In this document: positions 4,212-15,565 of the stretch, in pieces
Layout: every line of letters begins with the position of its first letter
How positions within the stretch are numbered: position 1 is the first letter of the stretch
Virus record (IMG/VR): IMGVR_UViG_2778261181_000003
Source: a virus
Taxonomy: Duplodnaviria > Heunggongvirae > Uroviricota > Caudoviricetes
Length of the DNA: 25,108 nt
Direction: 5' to 3' (one strand)
Notes under the pieces: generated by a model
What the model was told of the DNA's origin: nothing
Databases searched by the model: none
What the model saw: only the letters and a program-made list of their open reading frames with translations
Made by a program: the position numbers and the translations under genes

Positions 4212-5065
4212 GCACCATCCTGAAATGGGCGGGAAATAAAACCGCAATTATGTCCGAACTGAAAAAATACCTACCTGCTGGCCCGCGACTGGTTGAACCT
4301 TTCGCGGGTTCCTGTGCTGTGATGATGGAGACGGATTACCCCAGCTATCTGGTTGCGGATATTAATCCTGATTTAATCAACCTCTATAAAAAGATTGCCG
4401 CTGATTGCGAGGCGTTTATATCGCGGACCAGAACTTTGTTTGAGGAAGCAAACAGTGACCTAGCTTATTACAACATAAGGCAGGAGTTTAATTACTCAAC
4501 TGAAATTAATGATTTCATGAAAGCGATATATTTCCTGTATCTCAATCGTCATGGTTACCGTGGGTTATGTCGCTATAACAAGAGCGGGCATTTCAACATT
4601 CCCTACGGTAATTATAAAAATCCGTATTTCCCTGAAAAAGAAATTCGCGCATTTGCAGAAAAAGCCCAGCGGGCAACGTTTATCTGCGCCAGCTTTGATG
4701 AAACGCTGGCGATGTTGAAGGCGGGGGATGTGGTGTATTGCGATCCGCCGTATGACGGCACGTTTTCCGGTTATCACACTGACGGCTTCACTGAAGATGA
4801 CCAGTATCACCTGGCATCCGTTCTTGAATATCGATCATCAGAAGGTCATCCGGTCATTGTTTCTAACAGTGATACATCCCTGATCCGTTCGCTGTATCGC
4901 AATTTCACTCACCACTACATCAAGGCAAAACGCAGCATCGGCGTGTCAGCTGGCGAGAGTAAATCTGCAACAGAAATCATTGCTGTTTCCGGGTCGCGCT
5001 GCTGGATGGGATTTGATCCTTCGCGTGGCGTGGATAGTTCTGCTGTGTACGAGGTGCGTGTATGA
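4208..5065 (+). CDS. dam: DNA adenine methyltransferase, Dam family (N6-adenine MTase)
   Basis: N-terminal LKWAGNK motif (AdoMet binding) and catalytic DPPY motif in the translation; ATG at 4208 overlapping the upstream stop; 3' end overlaps the A gene start. Confidence 0.85.
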
Positions 5066-7476
5066 GTCATGACGATATGAGCAACTCTAGCGGCTTTAAC
5101 GAGGCTGCCGCAGCATTTTCATGGAACGGCCCGAAAAAGGCCATTAACCCTTATCTGGATCCGGCGGAAGTTGCGCCGGAGTCTGCACTTTCAAACCTGA
5201 TCACTCTGTACGCTGCCGATAACGAGCAGGAACAACTGCGCCGCGAGGCACTGAGTGAGCAGGTCTGGGAGCGTTATTTCTTTAATGAATCCCGTGATCC
5301 TGTCCAGCGCGAAATGGAGCAGGATAAGCTCATTAGCCGGGCAAAGCTGGCGCATGAGCAGCAGCGTTTTAACCCGGACATGGTCATTCTGGCAGATGTC
5401 AGCGCCCAGCCTTCTCATATCAGCAAGCCGCTGATGCAACGTATCGAATACTTCAGCAGCCTGGGCAGGCCAAAGGCTTATTCCCGCTATTTGCGTGAGA
5501 CGATTAAGCCATGTCTGGAGCGACTGGATTGTGTACGTGACAGTCAGCTATCTGTTTCTTTCCGTTTTATGGCAAGCCATCAAGGGCTGGAGGGGCTGCT
5601 GATCCTGCCTGAAATGAGCCAGGATCAGGTGAAACGCCTGTCCACCCTGGTAGCAGCGCATATGAGCATGTGTCTTGAGGCCGCTTGTGGTGATTTGTAC
5701 GCCACCGATGACGTTAAGCCAGAAGAAATCCGCAAGACATGGGAAAAGGTGGCTGCGGAAACCCTGCGTCTGGATGTTATCCCGCCTGCGTTTGAGAAAC
5801 TTCGTCGGAAAAGAAACCGCCGCAAACCTGTGCCCTATGAACTCATACCGGGTTCGCTGGCACGTATGCTTTGCGCCGACTGGTGGTATCGAAAATTGTG
5901 GAAGATGCGTTGCGAATGGCGGGAAGAGCAGTTGCGTGCTGTCTGTCTGGTCAGCAAAAAAGCATCTCCCTATGTCAGCTATGAAGCAGTGACGCATAAA
6001 CGTGAGCAGCGCCGCAAGTCGCTGGAGTTTTTCCGTTCTCATGAACTGGTGAACGAAGACGGAGACACGCTGGATATGGAAGATGTGGTAAACGCCAGCA
6101 GCAGCAACCCGGCACATCGCCGCAATGAGATGATGGCCTGCGTTAAAGGTCTGGAGCTTATCGCGGAAATGCGCGGTGACTGCGCCGTTTTCTACACCAT
6201 CACCTGTCCGTCACGTTTCCATTCCACGCTCAATAACGGCAGACCAAACCCGACCTGGACAAATGCGACGGTAAGACAAAGCAGTGATTATCTGGTCGGC
6301 ATGTTTGCTGCATTTCGTAAGGCGATGCACAAAGCCGGATTGCGGTGGTATGGCGTGCGGGTGGCTGAGCCGCATCATGACGGTACTGTGCACTGGCATC
6401 TCATGTGCTTCATGCGTAAAAAAGACCGCCGCGCCATCACTGCATTACTGCGTAAGTTTGCCATCCGTGAAGACCGCGAGGAACTGGGCAATAACACGGG
6501 GCCACGCTTTAAGTCTGAGCTGATTAACCCGCGCAAAGGAACGCCGACAAGCTACATCGCGAAATACATCAGTAAGAACATTGACGGGCGTGGTCTGGCT
6601 GGCGAGATCAGCAAGGAAACGGGTAAATCCCTGCGTGATAACGCTGAATACGTTAATGCCTGGGCGTCTCTGCATCGTGTTCAGCAATTCCGCTTCTTTG
6701 GCATTCCGGGGCGTCAGGCTTACCGTGAACTGCGATTGCTGGCTGGTCAGGCGGCAAGGCAGCAGGGTGACAAAAAAGCAGGTGCGCCGGTACTGGATGA
6801 TCCGCGTCTTGATGCCATTCTGGCTGCTGCTGATGCTGGCTGTTTTGCCACCTACATTATGAAGCAGGGCGGCGTGTTGGTTCCCCGCAAATATCACTTG
6901 ATCAGAACCGCTTATGAAATCAACGAAGAGCCGACCGCCTATGGTGATCACGGTATTCGTATTTATGGCATCTGGTCACCCATTGCAGAGGGCAAGATCT
7001 GCACTCATGCAGTGAAGTGGAAAATGGTTCGTAAGGCCGTTGACGTTCAGGAGGCGGCAGCCGACCAGGGCGCTTGCGCCCCTTGGACTCGTGGCAATAA
7101 CTGTCCCCTTGCTGAAAATTTGTACCAACAAGGGAAAGACAAATCAGCTGATGGAGATACCAGAACGGATATCACCCGTATGGATGACAAGGAGTTGCAC
7201 GATTACCTGCACAGTATGAGCAAAAAAGAGCGCCGGGAACTGGCAGCAAGGTTACGCCTGGTGAAACCGAAACGGCGTAAAGACTACAAACAGCGAATTA
7301 CAGATCATCAGCGACAGCAGCTCGTGTATGAACTGAAGTCCAGGGGATTTGATGGCAGCGAGAAAGAGGTCGATTTACTCCTTCGCGGCGGCAGTATTCC
7401 GTCAGGAGCAGGCCTGCGTATCTTCTATCGGAACCAGCGTTTGCAGGAAGATGATAAGTGGCGGAACCTGTATTAA
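5062..7476 (+). CDS. A: Replication initiation endonuclease A (rolling-circle initiator, P2 gpA-like)
   Basis: 804-aa protein with HUH-type motif ([13 protein letters not shown]) and paired-tyrosine motif ([10 protein letters not shown]) as in the phiX174 A / P2 A superfamily; position after the early genes matches P2/186. Confidence 0.85.
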
Positions 7477-8205: not shown

Positions 8206-10065
8206 TTAGTGAGGGCTGGTTATTACGTAGTCGCTCTGGTCATCCTCTCCCAGCCTCTCAGGTATTAAATCGTTGAAGGAAATAGTATTACTCTTAGGTT
8301 TTTCTTCAATTGGAAGTTCAGCTACCCTTAATTTGAGCGGCATGGGGCAGACGATACCACTAAAAATACAGGTTCCTGTAGATAGCGTTGGAATCGACTC
8401 TTCAGTCAGTCGATCTATATATGATACTGATTTTTCAATTGCGTACAGATCATTCTGATTAATAAGGCGATGAATAAAATAATTGTGTGCTTGGGATATG
8501 ATTGTCGACGATATATCATTAGGGCGTTGACTGGAAATTGTGATAAAAACTCCAAATTTTCTCCCCTCCTTTATGATTTCCTCAAAAGTTTCCAGACGAT
8601 AATCTCTCCAACTTTCCGTTTCCCGAAAAGAAGTATTAGACAAAATATTGTGGGCTTCATCTATAATGATGTGCAGTGTAGATTTCTCTGTAGACATTTT
8701 CTTCATATTGTAAGCCCACTTGGCTATCAAAAGAGGAAGCGTTTTTTTCATGGTTATATTAACCATATTTAGATTCACAACCGTGAAATTATGTTCACCC
8801 CAAAAGTCAGACTGTCCGGAAGTATCAAATATTTTGGCTATATCTTTACGGTTAGCACTCATTCTATTTATAACTGGTGAAATATGTTCAGGGTTAGACT
8901 TGTTAGATAAATATTCCTGTATTAACTGTAAGTACATAAAGTCCAACAGTTCTTCAATCATATCAGTTTTAAATGAAAAATTGCTTGCAAGACTGAATAG
9001 ATAGGAGCGCTCAGTATCAGCTTCTGTATTGAAAATACTACCACCCCTCAATTTCCATTTATATGCAGTTGAATGATACTCAAGATCAGATATAAGTTCT
9101 GGGTCATCTTTGAAAATTGGGCTAAGAAACTGATTTATAGTATCGCATTTGGGTTTGTCGCTACTAAAGAGATTTTGTCTGACTTTTTTCTTCAGGATAT
9201 TGCGCATAAACTCAAGAGGATTATCAGCAGTCATCACTTTCTTGCGAAACTCAAGAACTCTCTTCAGGAAAGGTTTCTGTGTTTTGTCTGTTGCATCGGT
9301 TAGAACTGAGAGCATATCATGCTCAAGTAGAACCTCTCTGGGTAGAGGAAGTTTGTCACCATTTGCATGGTGCGTGTTGAGATTATAAACCGTCTTCTCG
9401 TCAGTAATACAGCGTGGGGCAGTATATTCTCCATTAAAGTCGAATAGAATAAATTTGCATCTTTCACTAAAGTGGTTGCCGAGAATATGTTTAACTTGGG
9501 CAATACCTGCTTTGTATAGCGCGGCTAGGGTATTTGACTTTCCGCTGCCTGTATTACCGAAAATGGCAATGTGGGAATTAATAAGACCATTGATTGGTAG
9601 TGCAATTTCAATATCTTCAAGATCTGTACGAGTAAACCTCATTACAGTTTCGTCTGCATCAGCTATCTGATGAACCGTCTGTATCATCTCTTCAGTTACC
9701 ACGAAGACTTCATTGCCGATGAGAGGTAGTTCACGCGAACCACCAATGAAGCAACCAGTACGATCAATGTAACCCGTAAGAGTAGAGGTCAGGTATCGCC
9801 GATATCGCCAGGCATCACTGCCGCTCCCAGCGAGATGTTTTTCCTCAATGATTCGTTCCGCTTCAACCTTGCCGATCAGGCTCATGAAACCTTTTTTGAT
9901 CTCAATGAAGCTACCCACTGATACATTTCTTAGAACTTTTCCCTGATAAAACAAGTCACTGAGATTTTTGTTTTTATCGACCAAAATTGTCACAGCGCGT
10001 CCAGAAACCTCACAGACTTCGCCTATACGGAGCACCGCTTCCTCTTCAGTAAAATGCCTGCTCAT
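8206..10065 (-). CDS. HerA-like ATPase (FtsK/HerA superfamily), partner of SIR2 in a SIR2-HerA anti-phage system
   Basis: Walker A GNTGSGKSNT and Walker B HIIIDEAHNI in the translation; ATG at 10063-10065 overlaps the SIR2 stop (ATGA) with GGGAGG RBS; AT-rich relative to the phage backbone. Confidence 0.8.
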   Translation of the reverse strand: MSRHFTEEEAVLRIGEVCEVSGRAVTILVDKNKNLSDLFYQGKVLRNVSVGSFIEIKKGFMSLIGKVEAERIIEEKHLAGSGSDAWRYRRYLTSTLTGYIDRTGCFIGGSRELPLIGNEVFVVTEEMIQTVHQIADADETVMRFTRTDLEDIEIALPINGLINSHIAIFGNTGSGKSNTLAALYKAGIAQVKHILGNHFSERCKFILFDFNGEYTAPRCITDEKTVYNLNTHHANGDKLPLPREVLLEHDMLSVLTDATDKTQKPFLKRVLEFRKKVMTADNPLEFMRNILKKKVRQNLFSSDKPKCDTINQFLSPIFKDDPELISDLEYHSTAYKWKLRGGSIFNTEADTERSYLFSLASNFSFKTDMIEELLDFMYLQLIQEYLSNKSNPEHISPVINRMSANRKDIAKIFDTSGQSDFWGEHNFTVVNLNMVNITMKKTLPLLIAKWAYNMKKMSTEKSTLHIIIDEAHNILSNTSFRETESWRDYRLETFEEIIKEGRKFGVFITISSQRPNDISSTIISQAHNYFIHRLINQNDLYAIEKSVSYIDRLTEESIPTLSTGTCIFSGIVCPMPLKLRVAELPIEEKPKSNTISFNDLIPERLGEDDQSDYVITSPH

Positions 10066-11105
10066 CTCGAGCCTCCCAGATAGCACGTGATAATGTTATT
10101 CATTACCGGAAAATCAACATTTCTTCCCGGCCGATAAATAATCTCTACGTTTGAGTAATCCCGAAATTTCTCCATAAAGCCGTTAACACTGGCCTCATCG
10201 AAAGCAAAGATCAGTAGCTTCAGGGTGGCGTTGCGCAGGGCTTTTTTAGTTATCGTTTCAATGTGCTCATCAGCAAACGAGAACCCAAAGACAATTAGTA
10301 AAGTTGCTTCTTTATCAAGCTCGTTGGAATAGGTTCTCAGTAAATCATAATAAACGTTCTGTAGTAGAGTCTCTTTAAACTTCTCCTTACGTGGAAGAAT
10401 AAGTGCATGAGCAAGTACCCATCCTTTCATTTCGGCTAGGGTGGGAAAGTCAAGCGGCTTAATATCTGCAATACGATAAATGATTTTCCCTTTAGAATGC
10501 TGCCAAGAGAGCGAACCATGAAGTTTTATAAGGTTAACAGTAGGAAGCTCAACTTTATAATTATACAGATTTCCGGTTGCACTTACAGAATGATTAAAGC
10601 TACCCGCATCAAATTCCGCATCTCCCAAAATACTTGCTCTTCTATTGAATCCATCATTAAAAAGAATATTGTTATTACGTGTGGCAGCTTCTTCGATGAA
10701 TAAATCATAATTAGTTGTAAAAACGTTAATACGCCTCGGAAGTAGGCCAGTTCGGCGGCGGGTCAGTATCTTTTCCAGTGAAGACATAAATGCATCATAA
10801 TTTGCACGGGTACATTCCAAATCGGTGATCACCTGAGGTGCGAAGGGGGTGCCGTAGCCGCGCTTCAACATGCATTCATGAGGTAGCCAAACATCTGACA
10901 AAAAGTCAGCTGCCATCCTTAAGTATTCATCTTCCTGTTCATCATTAATAAGCTGCTGAAGATCCGTTTCGATTGTCCCCAGTACTTTAATCGCTGGGAG
11001 GGATGCACCTGATCCGATGAGAAAGTTAATGTTAGCTGACTGAAATATCCGCTCTAAGTAGTCTCGGTCACTATCGTTACCGTAGTATGCGCGCTTGACT
11101 GCCAT
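10062..11105 (-). CDS. SIR2-domain protein (predicted NADase effector) of a SIR2-HerA anti-phage system
   Basis: Translation shows glycine-rich NAD-binding loop FLIGSGAS, the SIR2 TNYD motif (VFTTNYD) and a downstream KLHGS histidine; ATG at 11103-11105 with AAGGA RBS; immediately upstream of and coupled to the HerA gene. Confidence 0.8.
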   Translation of the reverse strand: MAVKRAYYGNDSDRDYLERIFQSANINFLIGSGASLPAIKVLGTIETDLQQLINDEQEDEYLRMAADFLSDVWLPHECMLKRGYGTPFAPQVITDLECTRANYDAFMSSLEKILTRRRTGLLPRRINVFTTNYDLFIEEAATRNNNILFNDGFNRRASILGDAEFDAGSFNHSVSATGNLYNYKVELPTVNLIKLHGSLSWQHSKGKIIYRIADIKPLDFPTLAEMKGWVLAHALILPRKEKFKETLLQNVYYDLLRTYSNELDKEATLLIVFGFSFADEHIETITKKALRNATLKLLIFAFDEASVNGFMEKFRDYSNVEIIYRPGRNVDFPVMNNIITCYLGGSR

Positions 11106-11529
11106 CTTATCCTTCCACAAAACATTGGATTAGTCTGTAATTTATTTAATCTTAACGCCGAGCTCAATACTTTAACATCACTTCTTCTGGCGATTGCTAT
11201 GAGCCCTTCTTGATAAAAAGTTCGATCGGGAAACTGATCCTTTATGCCACAAGTTTTCTAGCTATCCTCAAAAAATTGGTGTTAAAACTGTGCCAACAAA
11301 GTTGCAAGGTTCGCTTCTCGCTCACAGCGAACTTTCATCTTTGTAAACCCGTATGATTCGCTTTTCAGCAGTCATTCAGATACGGATTTACGCTTCCCTT
11401 GGCAGCGCATGACTATGACGCATGAGATCGCATGATCGTTTGAGGATCGTTTTTGCTGAAGTCAGCCAGAACTGGCGTGCTTTTGCTTATGTCATGCAGG
11501 TGCATGAAAACCACTACATAAAGCGGGCA

Positions 11530-11549
11530 GGCGTGGCGGGGATACGAGC
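11530..11549. other. Candidate cos (cohesive-end) site of the P2/186-type phage
   Basis: GGCGTGGCGGGGATACGAGC: the first 13 nt match the 186 cos overhang as I recall it (GGCGTGGCGGGGAAAGCAT; P2 GGCGAGGCGGGGAAAGCAC). Lies in the non-coding gap between the right-end cargo and the portal side, where cos is expected in a prophage. Confidence 0.4.
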
Positions 11550-11674
11550 GCGCGCTTAAGGATAAATTGAAGTTGATTTAATTTTTCGACATGGATAATC
11601 TTAACTACGTATGATTATTGATAAAAAATAAACATAAACAATTGTAGCGGATCTTAAAACTTATTAGGATTAGT

Positions 11675-12736
11675 ATGCTTAAAACAAATAAGGTATTTAT
11701 TGACACACAAACGTACGTAAAGGCTGGTCTTCATTTTGAGGGGGTAGCATTTAAAGCTTTCCATGAATTATGTGCGAAAGGTGATTTAGTCTTAATTACA
11801 ACTACAGTTGTAGAGAGAGAAGTAAAAGGTAAAATAGAGGAATCAATAAAGGATGCTCTGCAGGCTATAAACACAGTACAAAGAAAAGCTAGGCTTTTGA
11901 ATAGTATTGATAATGGACCGCTCCATGGTTTTTTTCAGCAATTTAACGAACATGAAATTCACGAAGCAGCACAAAAAGTTTTTGATGATTTTTTGAAAGG
12001 ATGTCACGCCAAATTAGCTACAATAGAAGTGATAGATCTTAATGAGGTTTTAGATAAATACTTTGGCAAAGAACCACCATTTGGGCAAAATAAGAAAAAA
12101 AGTGAGTTTCCTGATGCAATCACTTTAGCTGCGGTAGAGCGATTTGTTAATGATGAAGATGTGTATATCATTTCTGAGGATAGTGACTTAAAAAATTATT
12201 GTGATGGTAAAAACAATCTTCATCAAATTGATTCACTTGATAAGTTTCTAGGTGAATACAATACGCATACAAACGAATTAAGTAATAAATTGATGCAGTT
12301 TATCGAAAGCAAACGTGAAGACATAAGAGCGGACGTAATTGCCCAACTCAATGATGCCGATGGATATAACGTTTCAACTTGGGAAGACGCTGAATTGGAT
12401 TCATTTGAAGTCGTCAATATTGATGACTTTGAACCATCAATAATTAAGATTGACAATAATTATTGTCTAGCGACCTTCTCTGTTTCTGTAGATTTTGAAG
12501 TTACTGTTTCTGGTCCAGACTTTAATAATGGGTATTGGGATAGCGAAGATAAAGTAATGATTCCAATGGAGACAACCACACGAACTGAAGTTCAAGAGAT
12601 TAGTTTCGATATTGAAATTGAAGTTATGTATGAAATCGAGGATGGTGAATTAACAGATATCGCATTTGATGTGAATATTGATAAGTTATCCCGAGGGATT
12701 GAGTTCTCTATTGAAGAAAATAATTTTGAATATTAA
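11675..12736 (+). CDS. PIN-like nuclease-domain protein with acidic C-terminal domain of unknown function (353 aa); candidate defence or abortive-infection gene
   Basis: N-terminal half has a PIN-type acidic-residue pattern (KVFIDTQTY, VVEREV, EFPDAITLAAVERF, VYIISEDSDL); C-terminal about 170 aa is D/E-rich and beta-like; very AT-rich gene with its own 550-bp upstream region and a strong downstream terminator. Confidence 0.7.
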   Translation: MLKTNKVFIDTQTYVKAGLHFEGVAFKAFHELCAKGDLVLITTTVVEREVKGKIEESIKDALQAINTVQRKARLLNSIDNGPLHGFFQQFNEHEIHEAAQKVFDDFLKGCHAKLATIEVIDLNEVLDKYFGKEPPFGQNKKKSEFPDAITLAAVERFVNDEDVYIISEDSDLKNYCDGKNNLHQIDSLDKFLGEYNTHTNELSNKLMQFIESKREDIRADVIAQLNDADGYNVSTWEDAELDSFEVVNIDDFEPSIIKIDNNYCLATFSVSVDFEVTVSGPDFNNGYWDSEDKVMIPMETTTRTEVQEISFDIEIEVMYEIEDGELTDIAFDVNIDKLSRGIEFSIEENNFEY

Positions 12737-12745
12737 TTCGTTCAT

Positions 12746-12777
12746 AACGGCATCATTGTGATGCCGTTGGGTTTTAT
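12746..12777 (+). terminator. Rho-independent terminator after the PIN-like gene
   Basis: Perfect 10-bp stem AACGGCATCA / TGATGCCGTT with 3-nt loop, followed by GGGTTTTAT; overlaps the stop codon of the convergent portal gene. Confidence 0.6.
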
Positions 12778-13799
12778 AATGTATATATTTCAAAATTTAT
12801 AATTTCATGACCAAGCCATCTGTTTATTTCCATGAATCTTTTTTGAAGTGGTAATAGTTCATTTCTTACGAAGACGCAGCTCGCCTTCTCCACATCACCA
12901 AAACCCCCAACATTATTCGGCAAAATTCCCATCATCTGAGGCGGTACGCGGTGTGCCGCCATCATGTCATCACGGCTGACGTTCTTGATGTTCAGAAATT
13001 CATCCTTCGCCGCGACTTCTGACAACGGGATGATCTGAAGCCCGTCCTTTTTGCCGTTAGGCGAGTACATAAACAGGTTGCGGAAGTTGCCAGGGCCTTT
13101 GGCGCTTTTCATCGCATTGCGGAGGTTGTTCACATCCTCCTGGTTCTGCGCGGCATCGGTCATGTACATGATGAAGCCTGCATGGCTGCCGTTAATGTAA
13201 TACTTCCGGCGGAACAGCGTGGCGGACTCGTTGAGCAGGGCTGACGGAATGGCAGAAAGATAACCTGGTAGGCCGTAGATCTCCTGGTTGATGTCAGGTT
13301 CCATCAGATGAAAAATGCTGCCTTTCGTGAACTGATACGGCTGGGTTGTCATACCGTATTGCACAAACCAGTAGGTATCCAGGTCTAACCCGCGTCGGGT
13401 GTATTTTGCCAGAGCAGGCTCAAGGGCGATAACTTCACCGAAGCGGTTCGTGCGTTTCTCCAGGTAGGCGTTACCAAATACCAGATAGTCCTGCACAAAA
13501 CGTGAAAAAGCCTGCTGGCTGAGCAGCGGGTGAGGGATGTAGGTACTGGTCAGAATGTTGCATTTCACCGCAATTGGTGAGCTGTGATGCACGGCGGCGC
13601 GGAAGGTTCGTGCCAGTCCGTCAAAGCTGACGGGCGGCTCATACCAGCGATCCATCTGTACGCATTCCACATAGTCCAGCAGTTCACGGCGGTCCAGAAC
13701 AGGAACGGGATCGCCAAAGCTGAATGCTTCGGCTGAAGTTTGGCTTTTATGCTTGAGCTGATTCGTCGCCGCAGCGCGGTTTTTCTTACTCTTTCCCAT
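12774..13799 (-). CDS. Q: Portal protein (P2 gpQ-like)
   Basis: 341 aa from ATG 13797-13799, which overlaps the terminase stop (ATGA); size and position match P2 Q, transcribed leftward after P toward cos. Confidence 0.85.
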   Translation of the reverse strand: MGKSKKNRAAATNQLKHKSQTSAEAFSFGDPVPVLDRRELLDYVECVQMDRWYEPPVSFDGLARTFRAAVHHSSPIAVKCNILTSTYIPHPLLSQQAFSRFVQDYLVFGNAYLEKRTNRFGEVIALEPALAKYTRRGLDLDTYWFVQYGMTTQPYQFTKGSIFHLMEPDINQEIYGLPGYLSAIPSALLNESATLFRRKYYINGSHAGFIMYMTDAAQNQEDVNNLRNAMKSAKGPGNFRNLFMYSPNGKKDGLQIIPLSEVAAKDEFLNIKNVSRDDMMAAHRVPPQMMGILPNNVGGFGDVEKASCVFVRNELLPLQKRFMEINRWLGHEIINFEIYTL

Positions 13800-15565
13800 C
13801 AAAAAATCTCCACAATATTGCTGGTATTGGCGGACTCGCCCTGCAGCGGTTCATTAAACAGTGCGTGCATTGTTGCCCAGGCCAGATCGGCGTGGCTGGC
13901 TTCTTCGCTGCGGCTGGCTTCATAGGTCGGGCGGTTGCCGCTGGCAGTGGTGGCGCGACGGATTGCCATAAAGGACTGCGCTATGTCGGTGTGCCCTGCG
14001 TCAAACTCCAGGCGGCGGTGGCTAATAATGTCGTAGGCCTTGAGTACCAGGGCGTTTTTAACGTTGGGGTTGTAGACAAACTCCCGGACGGCAGGAAAAA
14101 ACGCTTTCACGTTCTCGTAAACCCCGTGACCGACGCCGGTTGAGTCGATACCGATGTATGTCACGTTGTACTGTTCGGTCAGTTTTTTGATGGCGTCAGC
14201 CTGGGCGCGGAAGTCCATCCCGCGCCACTGGTGACGTTCAAGAATGCGAAACTTACCGCCTGGCACGGCTGGCGGTGCCACCACCACGCATCCGGCGCTG
14301 TCGCCGTTCTGCGTACCTTTTGCCGGGTCATAACCGATCCACACTTCGCGCCAGCCAAACGGGCGCAGGGCCAGTGCATGAAAGTCGCTCCAGACTTCCC
14401 AACTGTCCACCATGCACGCCTGCAGCTCGCTGAGCGGGAACACGGACGCGAGATCGTCCACAAACTCGCACATCAGCAGGTTCTGGTATTCGTCCGGGCT
14501 GTACTCCATGCGCAACTGATCGAGGTCGAAAAGGTTACATCCGCCGCGCACTGCATCTTCCACGGTGACTATCTGGCGGTATTGCCCGTCTGCGCACAGC
14601 AGGCCGGGGGCCAGATTGCTGTGGGACAGGTCGATGTCCACCTTATCGGCTTTGTTGCGCCCACGGTTGAACAGCGCACCAGACCAGAACGGATAAGCAC
14701 TGTGTGTCAGGCTGGATGGCGTGGAAAAATAGGTTTGTCGCCATTTTTTGTGAATAGCCATACCGGAAGCCACTTTGCGCAGCTCCTGGAATTTCGGTAT
14801 CCAGAAATATTCATCCAGATACAGGTTGCCGTGATAACTCTGGGCAGTGCGGGCATTGGTGCCGAGGAAGTAAAGCGTGGCCCCGTTAGGAAGCACCATC
14901 GGATCGCCTTTCAGCTCCACCTCGACTTCTTTGGCGAAGTCGATGATGTATTGCTTAAAGACGTGAGCCTGTGCCTTACTGGCAGAAAGGAAAATCTGGT
15001 TACGTCCGGTAAGCAGGGCGTCAATCAGGGCTTCACGGGCAAAGTAAAAGGTCGCGCCGATCTGGCGTGACTTCAGCAGATTACGGATGCGGTTGGTTTT
15101 TCCAGCTTCCCACCAGTGGCGCTGGTAGTTGAACATGGAGGAATGGAAGATTTCTTCCAGCTTCTCAATCTGTTCATCGGTGAAAACATTCTTTTCCGGC
15201 TGACGGCGCGGCCCTTTGTTGCGGTTGGCGACGTTAGGGTTTAAGTCGGCTTCGTTGCCGCCATTGTTAAACTTGCCGATCCGCGCGTGGCGCTCCGACT
15301 GGCGTGCCAGCAGGTCAATTTCTTTGAAATCTTTCCCTTCTTTGTGCTCCTTCATAATGAGCTGGCAATAGCGTGCGGCGGTGGTGAGCTGCATCTGATC
15401 CAGCGGCCCATAGTCACCCCACTTGTCGCGTTTTTTCCAGCTGTGAACGGTTGCAACTTTCTCGCCCAGCATTTCAGCAATGCGGGCTACGCGGTATCCC
15501 TGAAAGTACAGCAGCATGGCCTGCCGACGGGGATCGAGATCTGCGGGTGTCAGTGTGGTGTTCAT
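13799..15565 (-). CDS. P: Terminase large (ATPase) subunit (P2 gpP-like)
   Basis: 588 aa (P2 P is about 590); ATG at 15563-15565; divergent from the O gene as in P2. Confidence 0.9.
   Translation of the reverse strand: MNTTLTPADLDPRRQAMLLYFQGYRVARIAEMLGEKVATVHSWKKRDKWGDYGPLDQMQLTTAARYCQLIMKEHKEGKDFKEIDLLARQSERHARIGKFNNGGNEADLNPNVANRNKGPRRQPEKNVFTDEQIEKLEEIFHSSMFNYQRHWWEAGKTNRIRNLLKSRQIGATFYFAREALIDALLTGRNQIFLSASKAQAHVFKQYIIDFAKEVEVELKGDPMVLPNGATLYFLGTNARTAQSYHGNLYLDEYFWIPKFQELRKVASGMAIHKKWRQTYFSTPSSLTHSAYPFWSGALFNRGRNKADKVDIDLSHSNLAPGLLCADGQYRQIVTVEDAVRGGCNLFDLDQLRMEYSPDEYQNLLMCEFVDDLASVFPLSELQACMVDSWEVWSDFHALALRPFGWREVWIGYDPAKGTQNGDSAGCVVVAPPAVPGGKFRILERHQWRGMDFRAQADAIKKLTEQYNVTYIGIDSTGVGHGVYENVKAFFPAVREFVYNPNVKNALVLKAYDIISHRRLEFDAGHTDIAQSFMAIRRATTASGNRPTYEASRSEEASHADLAWATMHALFNEPLQGESANTSNIVEIF

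Follow-up and report, generated by a model that had tools for sequence, protein, structure and literature searches.

A PIN_12 (DUF4935) gene as candidate anti-phage cargo between cos and the portal gene of a P2/186-like prophage

The region between the replication gene A and the portal gene Q (gpA-gpQ) of P2-like prophages is a defence hotspot (Rousset et al. 2022; PMC9122126), and the hotspot table of that study contains arrangements labelled 'PIN_12', including WP_063106696, the protein of our comparison locus L002 (PMC9122126). Among the supplementary files examined, 'PIN' is found in this table only, and there is no sign that PIN_12 was among the tested systems (PMC9122126). DUF4935, the family that Pfam names PIN_12, has been described as comprising proteins of ~350 aa that begin with a PIN-like domain of the VapC group, into which a long helical segment is inserted, and continue with an uncharacterised alpha/beta region with no fold or function assigned; the gene is usually monocistronic (Matelska et al. 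2017; PMC5499597).

Brc24 (Cosus), encoded by a cassette of a mobile integron and reported to contain a 'PIN12 domain', confers complete resistance to T7 (bioRxiv 10.1101/2024.07.02.601719). Eleven of its residues were mutated, and only T12A, D14A and D96A were reported as defective, with protection reduced more than 10^5-fold; D153A and D177A are not among the reported defective mutants. One escape mutation alone was obtained, by selection on the D14A mutant, and it lies in the T7 tail protein gp12; the authors propose that injection is disturbed and that the activity may be dual. For Cosus, a hexameric assembly has been predicted. High expression of brc24 carries a fitness cost of 11% (bioRxiv 10.1101/2024.07.02.601719).

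The PIN_12 domain and its acidic partner

We analysed a 25,108-nt stretch of DNA from a virus of the Caudoviricetes (IMG/VR record IMGVR_UViG_2778261181_000003), referred to here as the window. According to its ORF list, a 353-aa ORF with an ATG start occupies 11675-12736 (+), exactly as described in a first-pass annotation of the sequence. That annotation had left the product in an unassigned family; the family can be named, since residues 7-171 match positions 1-171 of the 172 in the Pfam model PF16289 PIN_12 (DUF4935) (91 bits, gathering cut-off 32, E 1.5e-25). The N-terminal domain (residues 1-199; 11675-12271, +) has the three-layer alpha/beta/alpha sandwich that marks the PIN fold of the VapC group, in keeping with the PIN-like fold first suggested, and carries the four conserved acidic active-site residues, D10, E49, D147 and D169 (plus D171), which are its predicted catalytic residues. 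All of these are invariant in an alignment of 53 sequences, as are the Lys-rich loop K140-K142, F145-A148 (FPDA) and G280-P281 (GP). The motifs singled out at the outset, D10 (FIDTQ), E49 (VVERE), D147 (PDAIT) and S167/D169/D171 (ISEDSD), fall on invariant columns.

A search of 5.8 billion proteins gave 160 relatives at E up to 1e-5. PF16289 was found in all 120 of these that were listed, mostly full-length proteins of ~352-358 aa and mostly from gamma-proteobacteria, and homologues of 353-357 aa can be aligned with the 353-aa protein over the full length. The protein fits the DUF4935 description on every point (size, PIN-like N-terminus, alpha/beta C-terminus, single gene) with no structural difference, the C-terminal region being modelled here as an acidic roll. 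NCBIfam and PHROGs yielded no usable match, and a sequence-profile search of the PDB returned only chance matches to kinases with E above 0.4. PADLOC-DB 2.0, which matches the neighbouring SIR2 and HerA proteins strongly, returned 0 families for the 353-aa protein at E up to 1.

For the comparison with Cosus, the Brc24 sequence was rebuilt from the scanned supplementary primer table and Table S3, giving an error-ridden, frame-stitched protein of ~375 aa. In this sequence ITIDNATYKGEG aligns with VFIDTQTYVKAG of the 353-aa protein, which places D14 on D10; KDKKNEFPDAIALLAL aligns with NKKKSEFPDAITLAAV, which places D153 on D147; and VSQDKG aligns with ISEDSD, which places D177 on D169. D153 and D177 are the equivalents of canonical PIN catalytic residues, and yet D153A and D177A are absent from the list of defective mutants, which is odd for a simple nuclease mechanism. 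Against the family profile the approximate, error-ridden Brc24 scored 56.5 bits (single-target E 1.3e-19) and was collinear at positions 7-70 and 130-339, and its C-terminal half alone, from the same error-ridden sequence, gave 3.1 bits, no significant similarity. None of 1770 homologue sequences matched Brc24 at 7 or more of its 11 mutated positions, and no integron-borne copies were present among the plasmid matches, which are PIN_12 and AbiH cassettes. Since the profile match is only a distant one and the C-terminal half is not significant, Cosus appears, on profile evidence, to be a distant member of the same family and not an orthologue.

Both are encoded by single genes with an N-terminal PIN_12 domain (~375 aa for Cosus), in which ITID-N-ATY, KKxEFPDA and VSxD of Cosus align with FIDTQTY, KKSEFPDA and ISED here; both are stand-alone mobile cargo, and mutations in the PIN domain of Cosus weaken defence. 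They differ in that Cosus is an integron cassette with an attC site, whereas the 353-aa gene sits in a phage cos-Q slot. The sequences are distant, Cosus having matched none of the close homologues of the 353-aa protein, and the Cosus phenotype is known for T7 only. The view that the gene is no named system and something undescribed has to be given up, since PIN_12 is already catalogued in the P2 hotspot and Cosus is a member with proven anti-phage activity. The 353-aa protein is a phage-borne member of PIN_12/DUF4935, located in the hotspot for which it is already on record, and probably a single-gene anti-phage nuclease.

The C-terminal domain (residues 200-353 and the stop codon; 12272-12736, +) models as a cystatin/NTF2-like roll, with two helices and a long curved antiparallel beta-sheet. 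The acidity noted for this half from the beginning is pronounced: the pI is 4.05, 39 Asp and Glu stand against 9 Lys and Arg, and the net charge is ~-30 (median -29 across the family, range -37 to -16). A profile of the domain gave 200 matches among 1.84 billion representative proteins, and nearly all of them are ~350-aa proteins with the domain at positions 200-355. Ten matches were sampled: PIN_12 is complete at the N-terminus of all seven proteins of ~365-385 aa, and its C-terminal part is present in two shorter proteins. The pairing of this domain with PIN_12 thus appears near-exclusive, a near-obligate fusion. One further match, the 2545-aa repeat protein P0213, was dismissed as spurious.

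One exception is P0233, of 494 aa: its N-terminal part is an RNase domain of the HEPN_RiboL-PSP/MAE_28990 type, and its C-terminus matches the profile with an hhalign probability of 93.9% as a single sequence and 72% against an alignment of its own family. Its gene follows a GmrSD_N/DUF262 gene (L023:5803-8485). Sharing of the C-terminal domain with a HEPN_MAE_28990 branch is a lead and not a firm assignment. The HEPN_RiboL-PSP/MAE_28990 family of P0233 and its relatives P0270-P0284, with genes directly behind one for GmrSD_N/DUF262, is small and comprises proteins of 483-531 aa that have the motif GxYDSEDKV in common with PIN_12 proteins; shorter HEPN relatives of 377-405 aa do not have the PIN_12-type C-terminal domain.

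The cargo slot between cos and the portal gene

A P2/186-type cos region was located at 11498-11556 (+) by blastn to the P2 cos junction (78% over 59 nt, E 4e-9), and alignment to the circular P2 cos junction places the equivalent of the 19-nt cohesive end, GGCGTGGCGGGGATACGAG, at 11531-11549. A search of the window with the P2 cos pattern and up to 3 mismatches found no match because the cos of the window, a 186-like variant, differs from that of P2 at 5 of 19 positions. The same motif is found upstream of the cargo in loci L001, L002, L012, L013 and L020-L022, and this cos region bounds the cargo slot on the left. To the right, the portal gene Q extends over 12774-13802 with its stop codon at 12774. 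The PIN_12 gene is thus flanked by cos and the 3' end of Q, which is where it had been placed before. The accompanying remark that P2 has almost no DNA there also holds: in the P2 reference annotation cosL is at 1-19, the terminator tQ at 160-181 and the stop codon of Q at 187, an interval of 167 nt from cosL to the Q stop. With the 804-aa ORF at 5062-7476 occupying the position of the replication endonuclease in related loci, the PIN_12 gene lies between replication gene A and portal gene Q, that is, in the gpA-gpQ hotspot; the A and Q ORFs were identified from the ORF list of the window and by comparison with the annotated loci L001 and L002. P2 itself carries old and tin in this hotspot, variable cos-proximal cargo like the PIN_12 gene; however, old and tin are on the A side of cos and the PIN_12 gene is on the Q side.

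The gene differs from its surroundings in composition. The GC content of the ORF at 11675-12736 is 0.337 (33.7%) with a GC3 of 0.25; the complete window has 0.50 and the neighbouring portal Q and terminase P genes have 0.50-0.56, and in a scan of the 25-kb window the lowest-GC windows of 1062 nt all start within 11561-11811, so that it was rightly called the most AT-rich DNA of the window. Its own upstream region was overestimated at ~550 bp: of these 554 nt, only ~118 nt (11557-11674, +) are cassette DNA, an AT-rich 5' leader, and the rest is conserved cos flank. The promoter scan found in the leader a sigma-70-like promoter, TCGACA and TATGAT with an 18-nt spacer (11586-11615; 10 of 12 consensus positions), which is taken as a consensus match only because the count of sigma-70-like sites in the leader region is not above that of shuffled sequence. 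An AGGA ribosome-binding site at 11666-11669 is 5 nt ahead of the ATG. The terminator, likewise claimed earlier, is present at 12745-12769 (+) between the convergent PIN_12 and Q genes, where the terminator scan gave an intrinsic-terminator-like hairpin with an 11-bp stem, 5 G-C pairs and a loop of 3, followed by the T-run GGTTTTAT.

No plausible + strand ORF exists in the leader 11557-11674, and no co-directional ORF adjoins the PIN_12 gene. An antitoxin gene is present neither upstream, in the 118 nt from the conserved cos flank to the ATG, nor downstream before Q. Compared with VapC of type II VapBC modules, the 353-aa gene has no VapB antitoxin gene or other adjacent small antitoxin gene at the locus, and its PIN domain is larger, with a helical insert of ~65 residues and a fused 150-residue acidic domain. 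The only + strand ORF upstream, 11422-11559, spans cos and is part of the conserved flank; this 45-aa ORF, which crosses the cos site, is probably not a gene. A search for Rfam RNA families found zero across the whole window.

Of 5426 complete E. coli genomes, 36 have the cassette 11560-12773, each with one chromosomal copy of at least 99.7% identity that abuts the portal gene Q. What lies left of cos varies among carriers: a SIR2-HerA pair in the window, a PifA-like P-loop NTPase in L001 and nothing in L002. The defence pair of the window (8206-11120, -), on the A-gene side of cos, is a separate system by PADLOC and Pfam. It is complete, consisting of a SIR2 gene at 10062-11120 (-) (352 aa; PADLOC SIR2, E 6e-211; Pfam SIR2_2) and a HerA gene at 8206-10086 (-) (626 aa; PADLOC HerA, E 6e-267; Pfam DUF87), and the two ORFs overlap by 25 nt. 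A continuous match from the SIR2 end through cos to the PIN cassette was found in 0 of the 5426 genomes; with window 11100-11320 compared, the E. coli matches to the window start at ~11312-11407. The differing cargo left of cos and the lack of a match across the SIR2-cos junction show that left-hand and right-hand cargo assort independently of each other. The combination of SIR2-HerA with PIN_12 is absent from the 5426-genome collection.

By comparison of loci, the cos-Q interval is a general cargo site of P2-like prophages. In E. coli and Pantoea it often contains defence cargo of 1.7-3 kb (L020:3166-4934, L021:2236-4946, L022:3128-4980, L012:5073-8109); in three sampled prophages the cos-Q distance is 1.7-2.7 kb, with AbiU, a Septu-like PDC-M01 pair or a KAP-type NTPase inside. 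The cos flank and the 3' end of Q were found together within ~740 nt, both parts in one place with at least 80% of the query covered, in 28 of the 1280 genomes matching either or both. RosmerTA (RmrT, E 6e-92; RmrA, E 7e-196) occupies the interval in a Pantoea and a metagenomic P2-like prophage, followed by a PIN_12 allele with 51-54% identity. A three-gene system of RosmerTA and PIN_12 was considered and rejected, RmrT and RmrA being complete matches and absent from the E. coli cassette. Among viral contigs of IMG/VR, 49 carry a PIN_12 relative, and in 18 of them a gap of 44-64 nt separates it from the 3' end of a portal gene of the P2 type; the alleles in this slot include ones with 52-56% and 41% identity, and their portals are 67-88% identical. 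The PIN_12 cassette is a separately acquired single-gene cargo of a P2/186-like prophage, as had been surmised.

The right-hand junction appears to lie inside Q. The last 60 nt of this gene have 22% GC here and in other cargo carriers versus 50% in P2, the portal C-termini (last ~20-25 codons) vary with the type of cargo (window 12774-12840; L020, L021, L022, L012), and the homology of other prophages to Q starts 4-110 nt inside the gene. From this low-GC, cargo-dependent 3' end (12774-12840, -, the end approximate) the right recombination boundary of the slot is probably within 12774-12840, and the cargo appears to bring along its own portal C-terminus.

Proposed working of the protein and contexts of its relatives

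We propose that the gene is single-gene lysogenic-conversion cargo encoding a PIN_12 member, and that a Cosus-type anti-phage defence protein is its likely product, a reading that we hold with some but by no means full confidence; a defence role as such is reasonable. The gene would be transcribed in the lysogen from its own promoter, convergently with the late Q-P operon, and transcription would stop at the shared hairpin. The N-terminal PIN domain would be a metal-dependent endonuclease, probably acting on RNA like PIN domains of the VapC group, with D10, E49, D147 and D169 holding the metal. Because there is no antitoxin ORF and the fusion to one acidic domain is near-obligate, control would be built into the protein: the very acidic C-terminal domain may keep the nuclease silent or set its assembly state, and may sense infection. 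This role in autoinhibition and sensing is one that we purely infer. On infection by a competing phage the nuclease would be released and phage or host RNA cut, so that the infection stops, by analogy to Cosus and to single-protein abortive-infection nucleases.

If lysogens prove to be protected, a compact single-gene defence of ~1.2 kb from promoter to terminator would be added to the repertoire of the P2 hotspot, and the recently validated Cosus/PIN_12 family would extend from integrons to temperate phages. Invariant predicted catalytic residues, a fused acidic domain and no antitoxin would make a simple system for learning how a stand-alone PIN nuclease stays harmless until infection. Against the literature examined, what seems to be new is that the C-terminal domain has this fold and charge and is paired almost exclusively with PIN_12, with HEPN as a possible second partner, that diverged alleles repeatedly occupy the cos-Q slot and that the junction lies inside the portal gene. 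Independent assortment across cos, and a portal C-terminus that moves with the cargo, bear on the exchange of defence genes among P2-like phages.

A bolder version, which we consider doubtful, would make the acidic domain a built-in inhibitor and sensor, a fused 'antitoxin' or nucleic-acid mimic that masks the nuclease until a phage factor displaces it; with the same module on a HEPN_MAE_28990 RNase, such proteins would constitute a hitherto undescribed class of defence RNases, self-guarded within a single chain. A further element of this version is the cos-to-Q interval as a distinct cargo slot, with a recombination boundary inside the portal gene.

That D153A and D177A are not reported as defective, together with the escape through a tail protein, suggests that there may be more to the mechanism than nuclease catalysis. 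The protein, possibly in oligomeric form, might interfere with injection or early entry of a superinfecting phage, with the PIN domain serving mainly as a nucleic-acid-binding scaffold. The gp12 location of the sole Cosus escape mutation, found on the D14A mutant, and the injection interference and dual activity suggested by the Cosus authors fit such a block. However, the canonical acidic residues are all invariant in the family, which argues for retained catalysis, and no membrane segments are present in the predicted secondary structure of the 353-aa protein; we consider a block at entry unlikely.

A one-genome-per-species scan recovered 227 genomes with a PIN_12 relative, spread over many phyla. 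PIN_12, a small ORF and AbiTii follow in this order beside a filamentous prophage in P. aeruginosa; in Aeromonas PIN_12 lies between the antiterminator and lysis genes of a lambdoid prophage; in Vibrio it is in an island with Pfam domains of the Gabija pair GajA/GajB; and on plasmids distant PIN_12 relatives (25-28% identity) adjoin AbiH. The four nearest ORFs were surveyed at 38 of the 227-genome loci. PADLOC identified among them type I and type III restriction-modification, IetAS, pAgo and AbiO, as well as Nhi, mad3/mad8, PD-Lambda-3 and PDC-S51, and Pfam identified five integrases, several transposases and ordinary metabolic genes. PIN_12 is clearly associated with defence and mobile DNA, though not exclusively. 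The ordinary metabolic neighbours of some homologues count against the defence reading.

These contexts bear on a self-contained addiction or stabilisation module, in which a nuclease and its acidic 'antitoxin-like' domain would retain the prophage or plasmid, for example through selective proteolysis of the C-terminus, with no anti-phage role. The VapC-group PIN domain, the occurrence of the family on plasmids and prophages and the 11% cost of highly expressed brc24 are compatible with such a module; but a separate antitoxin gene is lacking, the neighbours are defence systems and not partition or replication modules, and the one assayed family member, Cosus, has a strong anti-phage phenotype; we consider such a module very unlikely.

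Just as improbable is a counter-defence or phage-lifecycle factor, with an acidic domain that mimics nucleic acid against host or rival systems or a nuclease that serves P2 lytic growth or conflict with P4-type satellites: the family-wide C-terminal net charge of ~-30, the position of the gene beside cos, at the far left of the packaged DNA, and the proximity of distant homologues to ssb, psiA and ParB genes on plasmids, the leading regions of which are rich in anti-defence genes, would suit it, but P2 lacks the gene, as do more than 99% of E. coli genomes, and it is therefore not needed for the phage cycle, the family also occurs in chromosomal defence islands outside phages, and the plasmid copies are paired with AbiH.

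The PIN_12 and AbiH pair was seen on many enterobacterial plasmids, and in the Providencia plasmid pC131 (L015:1892-7556) a cassette of a distant PIN_12 gene, a small ORF and AbiH lies between umuC and umuD, splitting umuDC.
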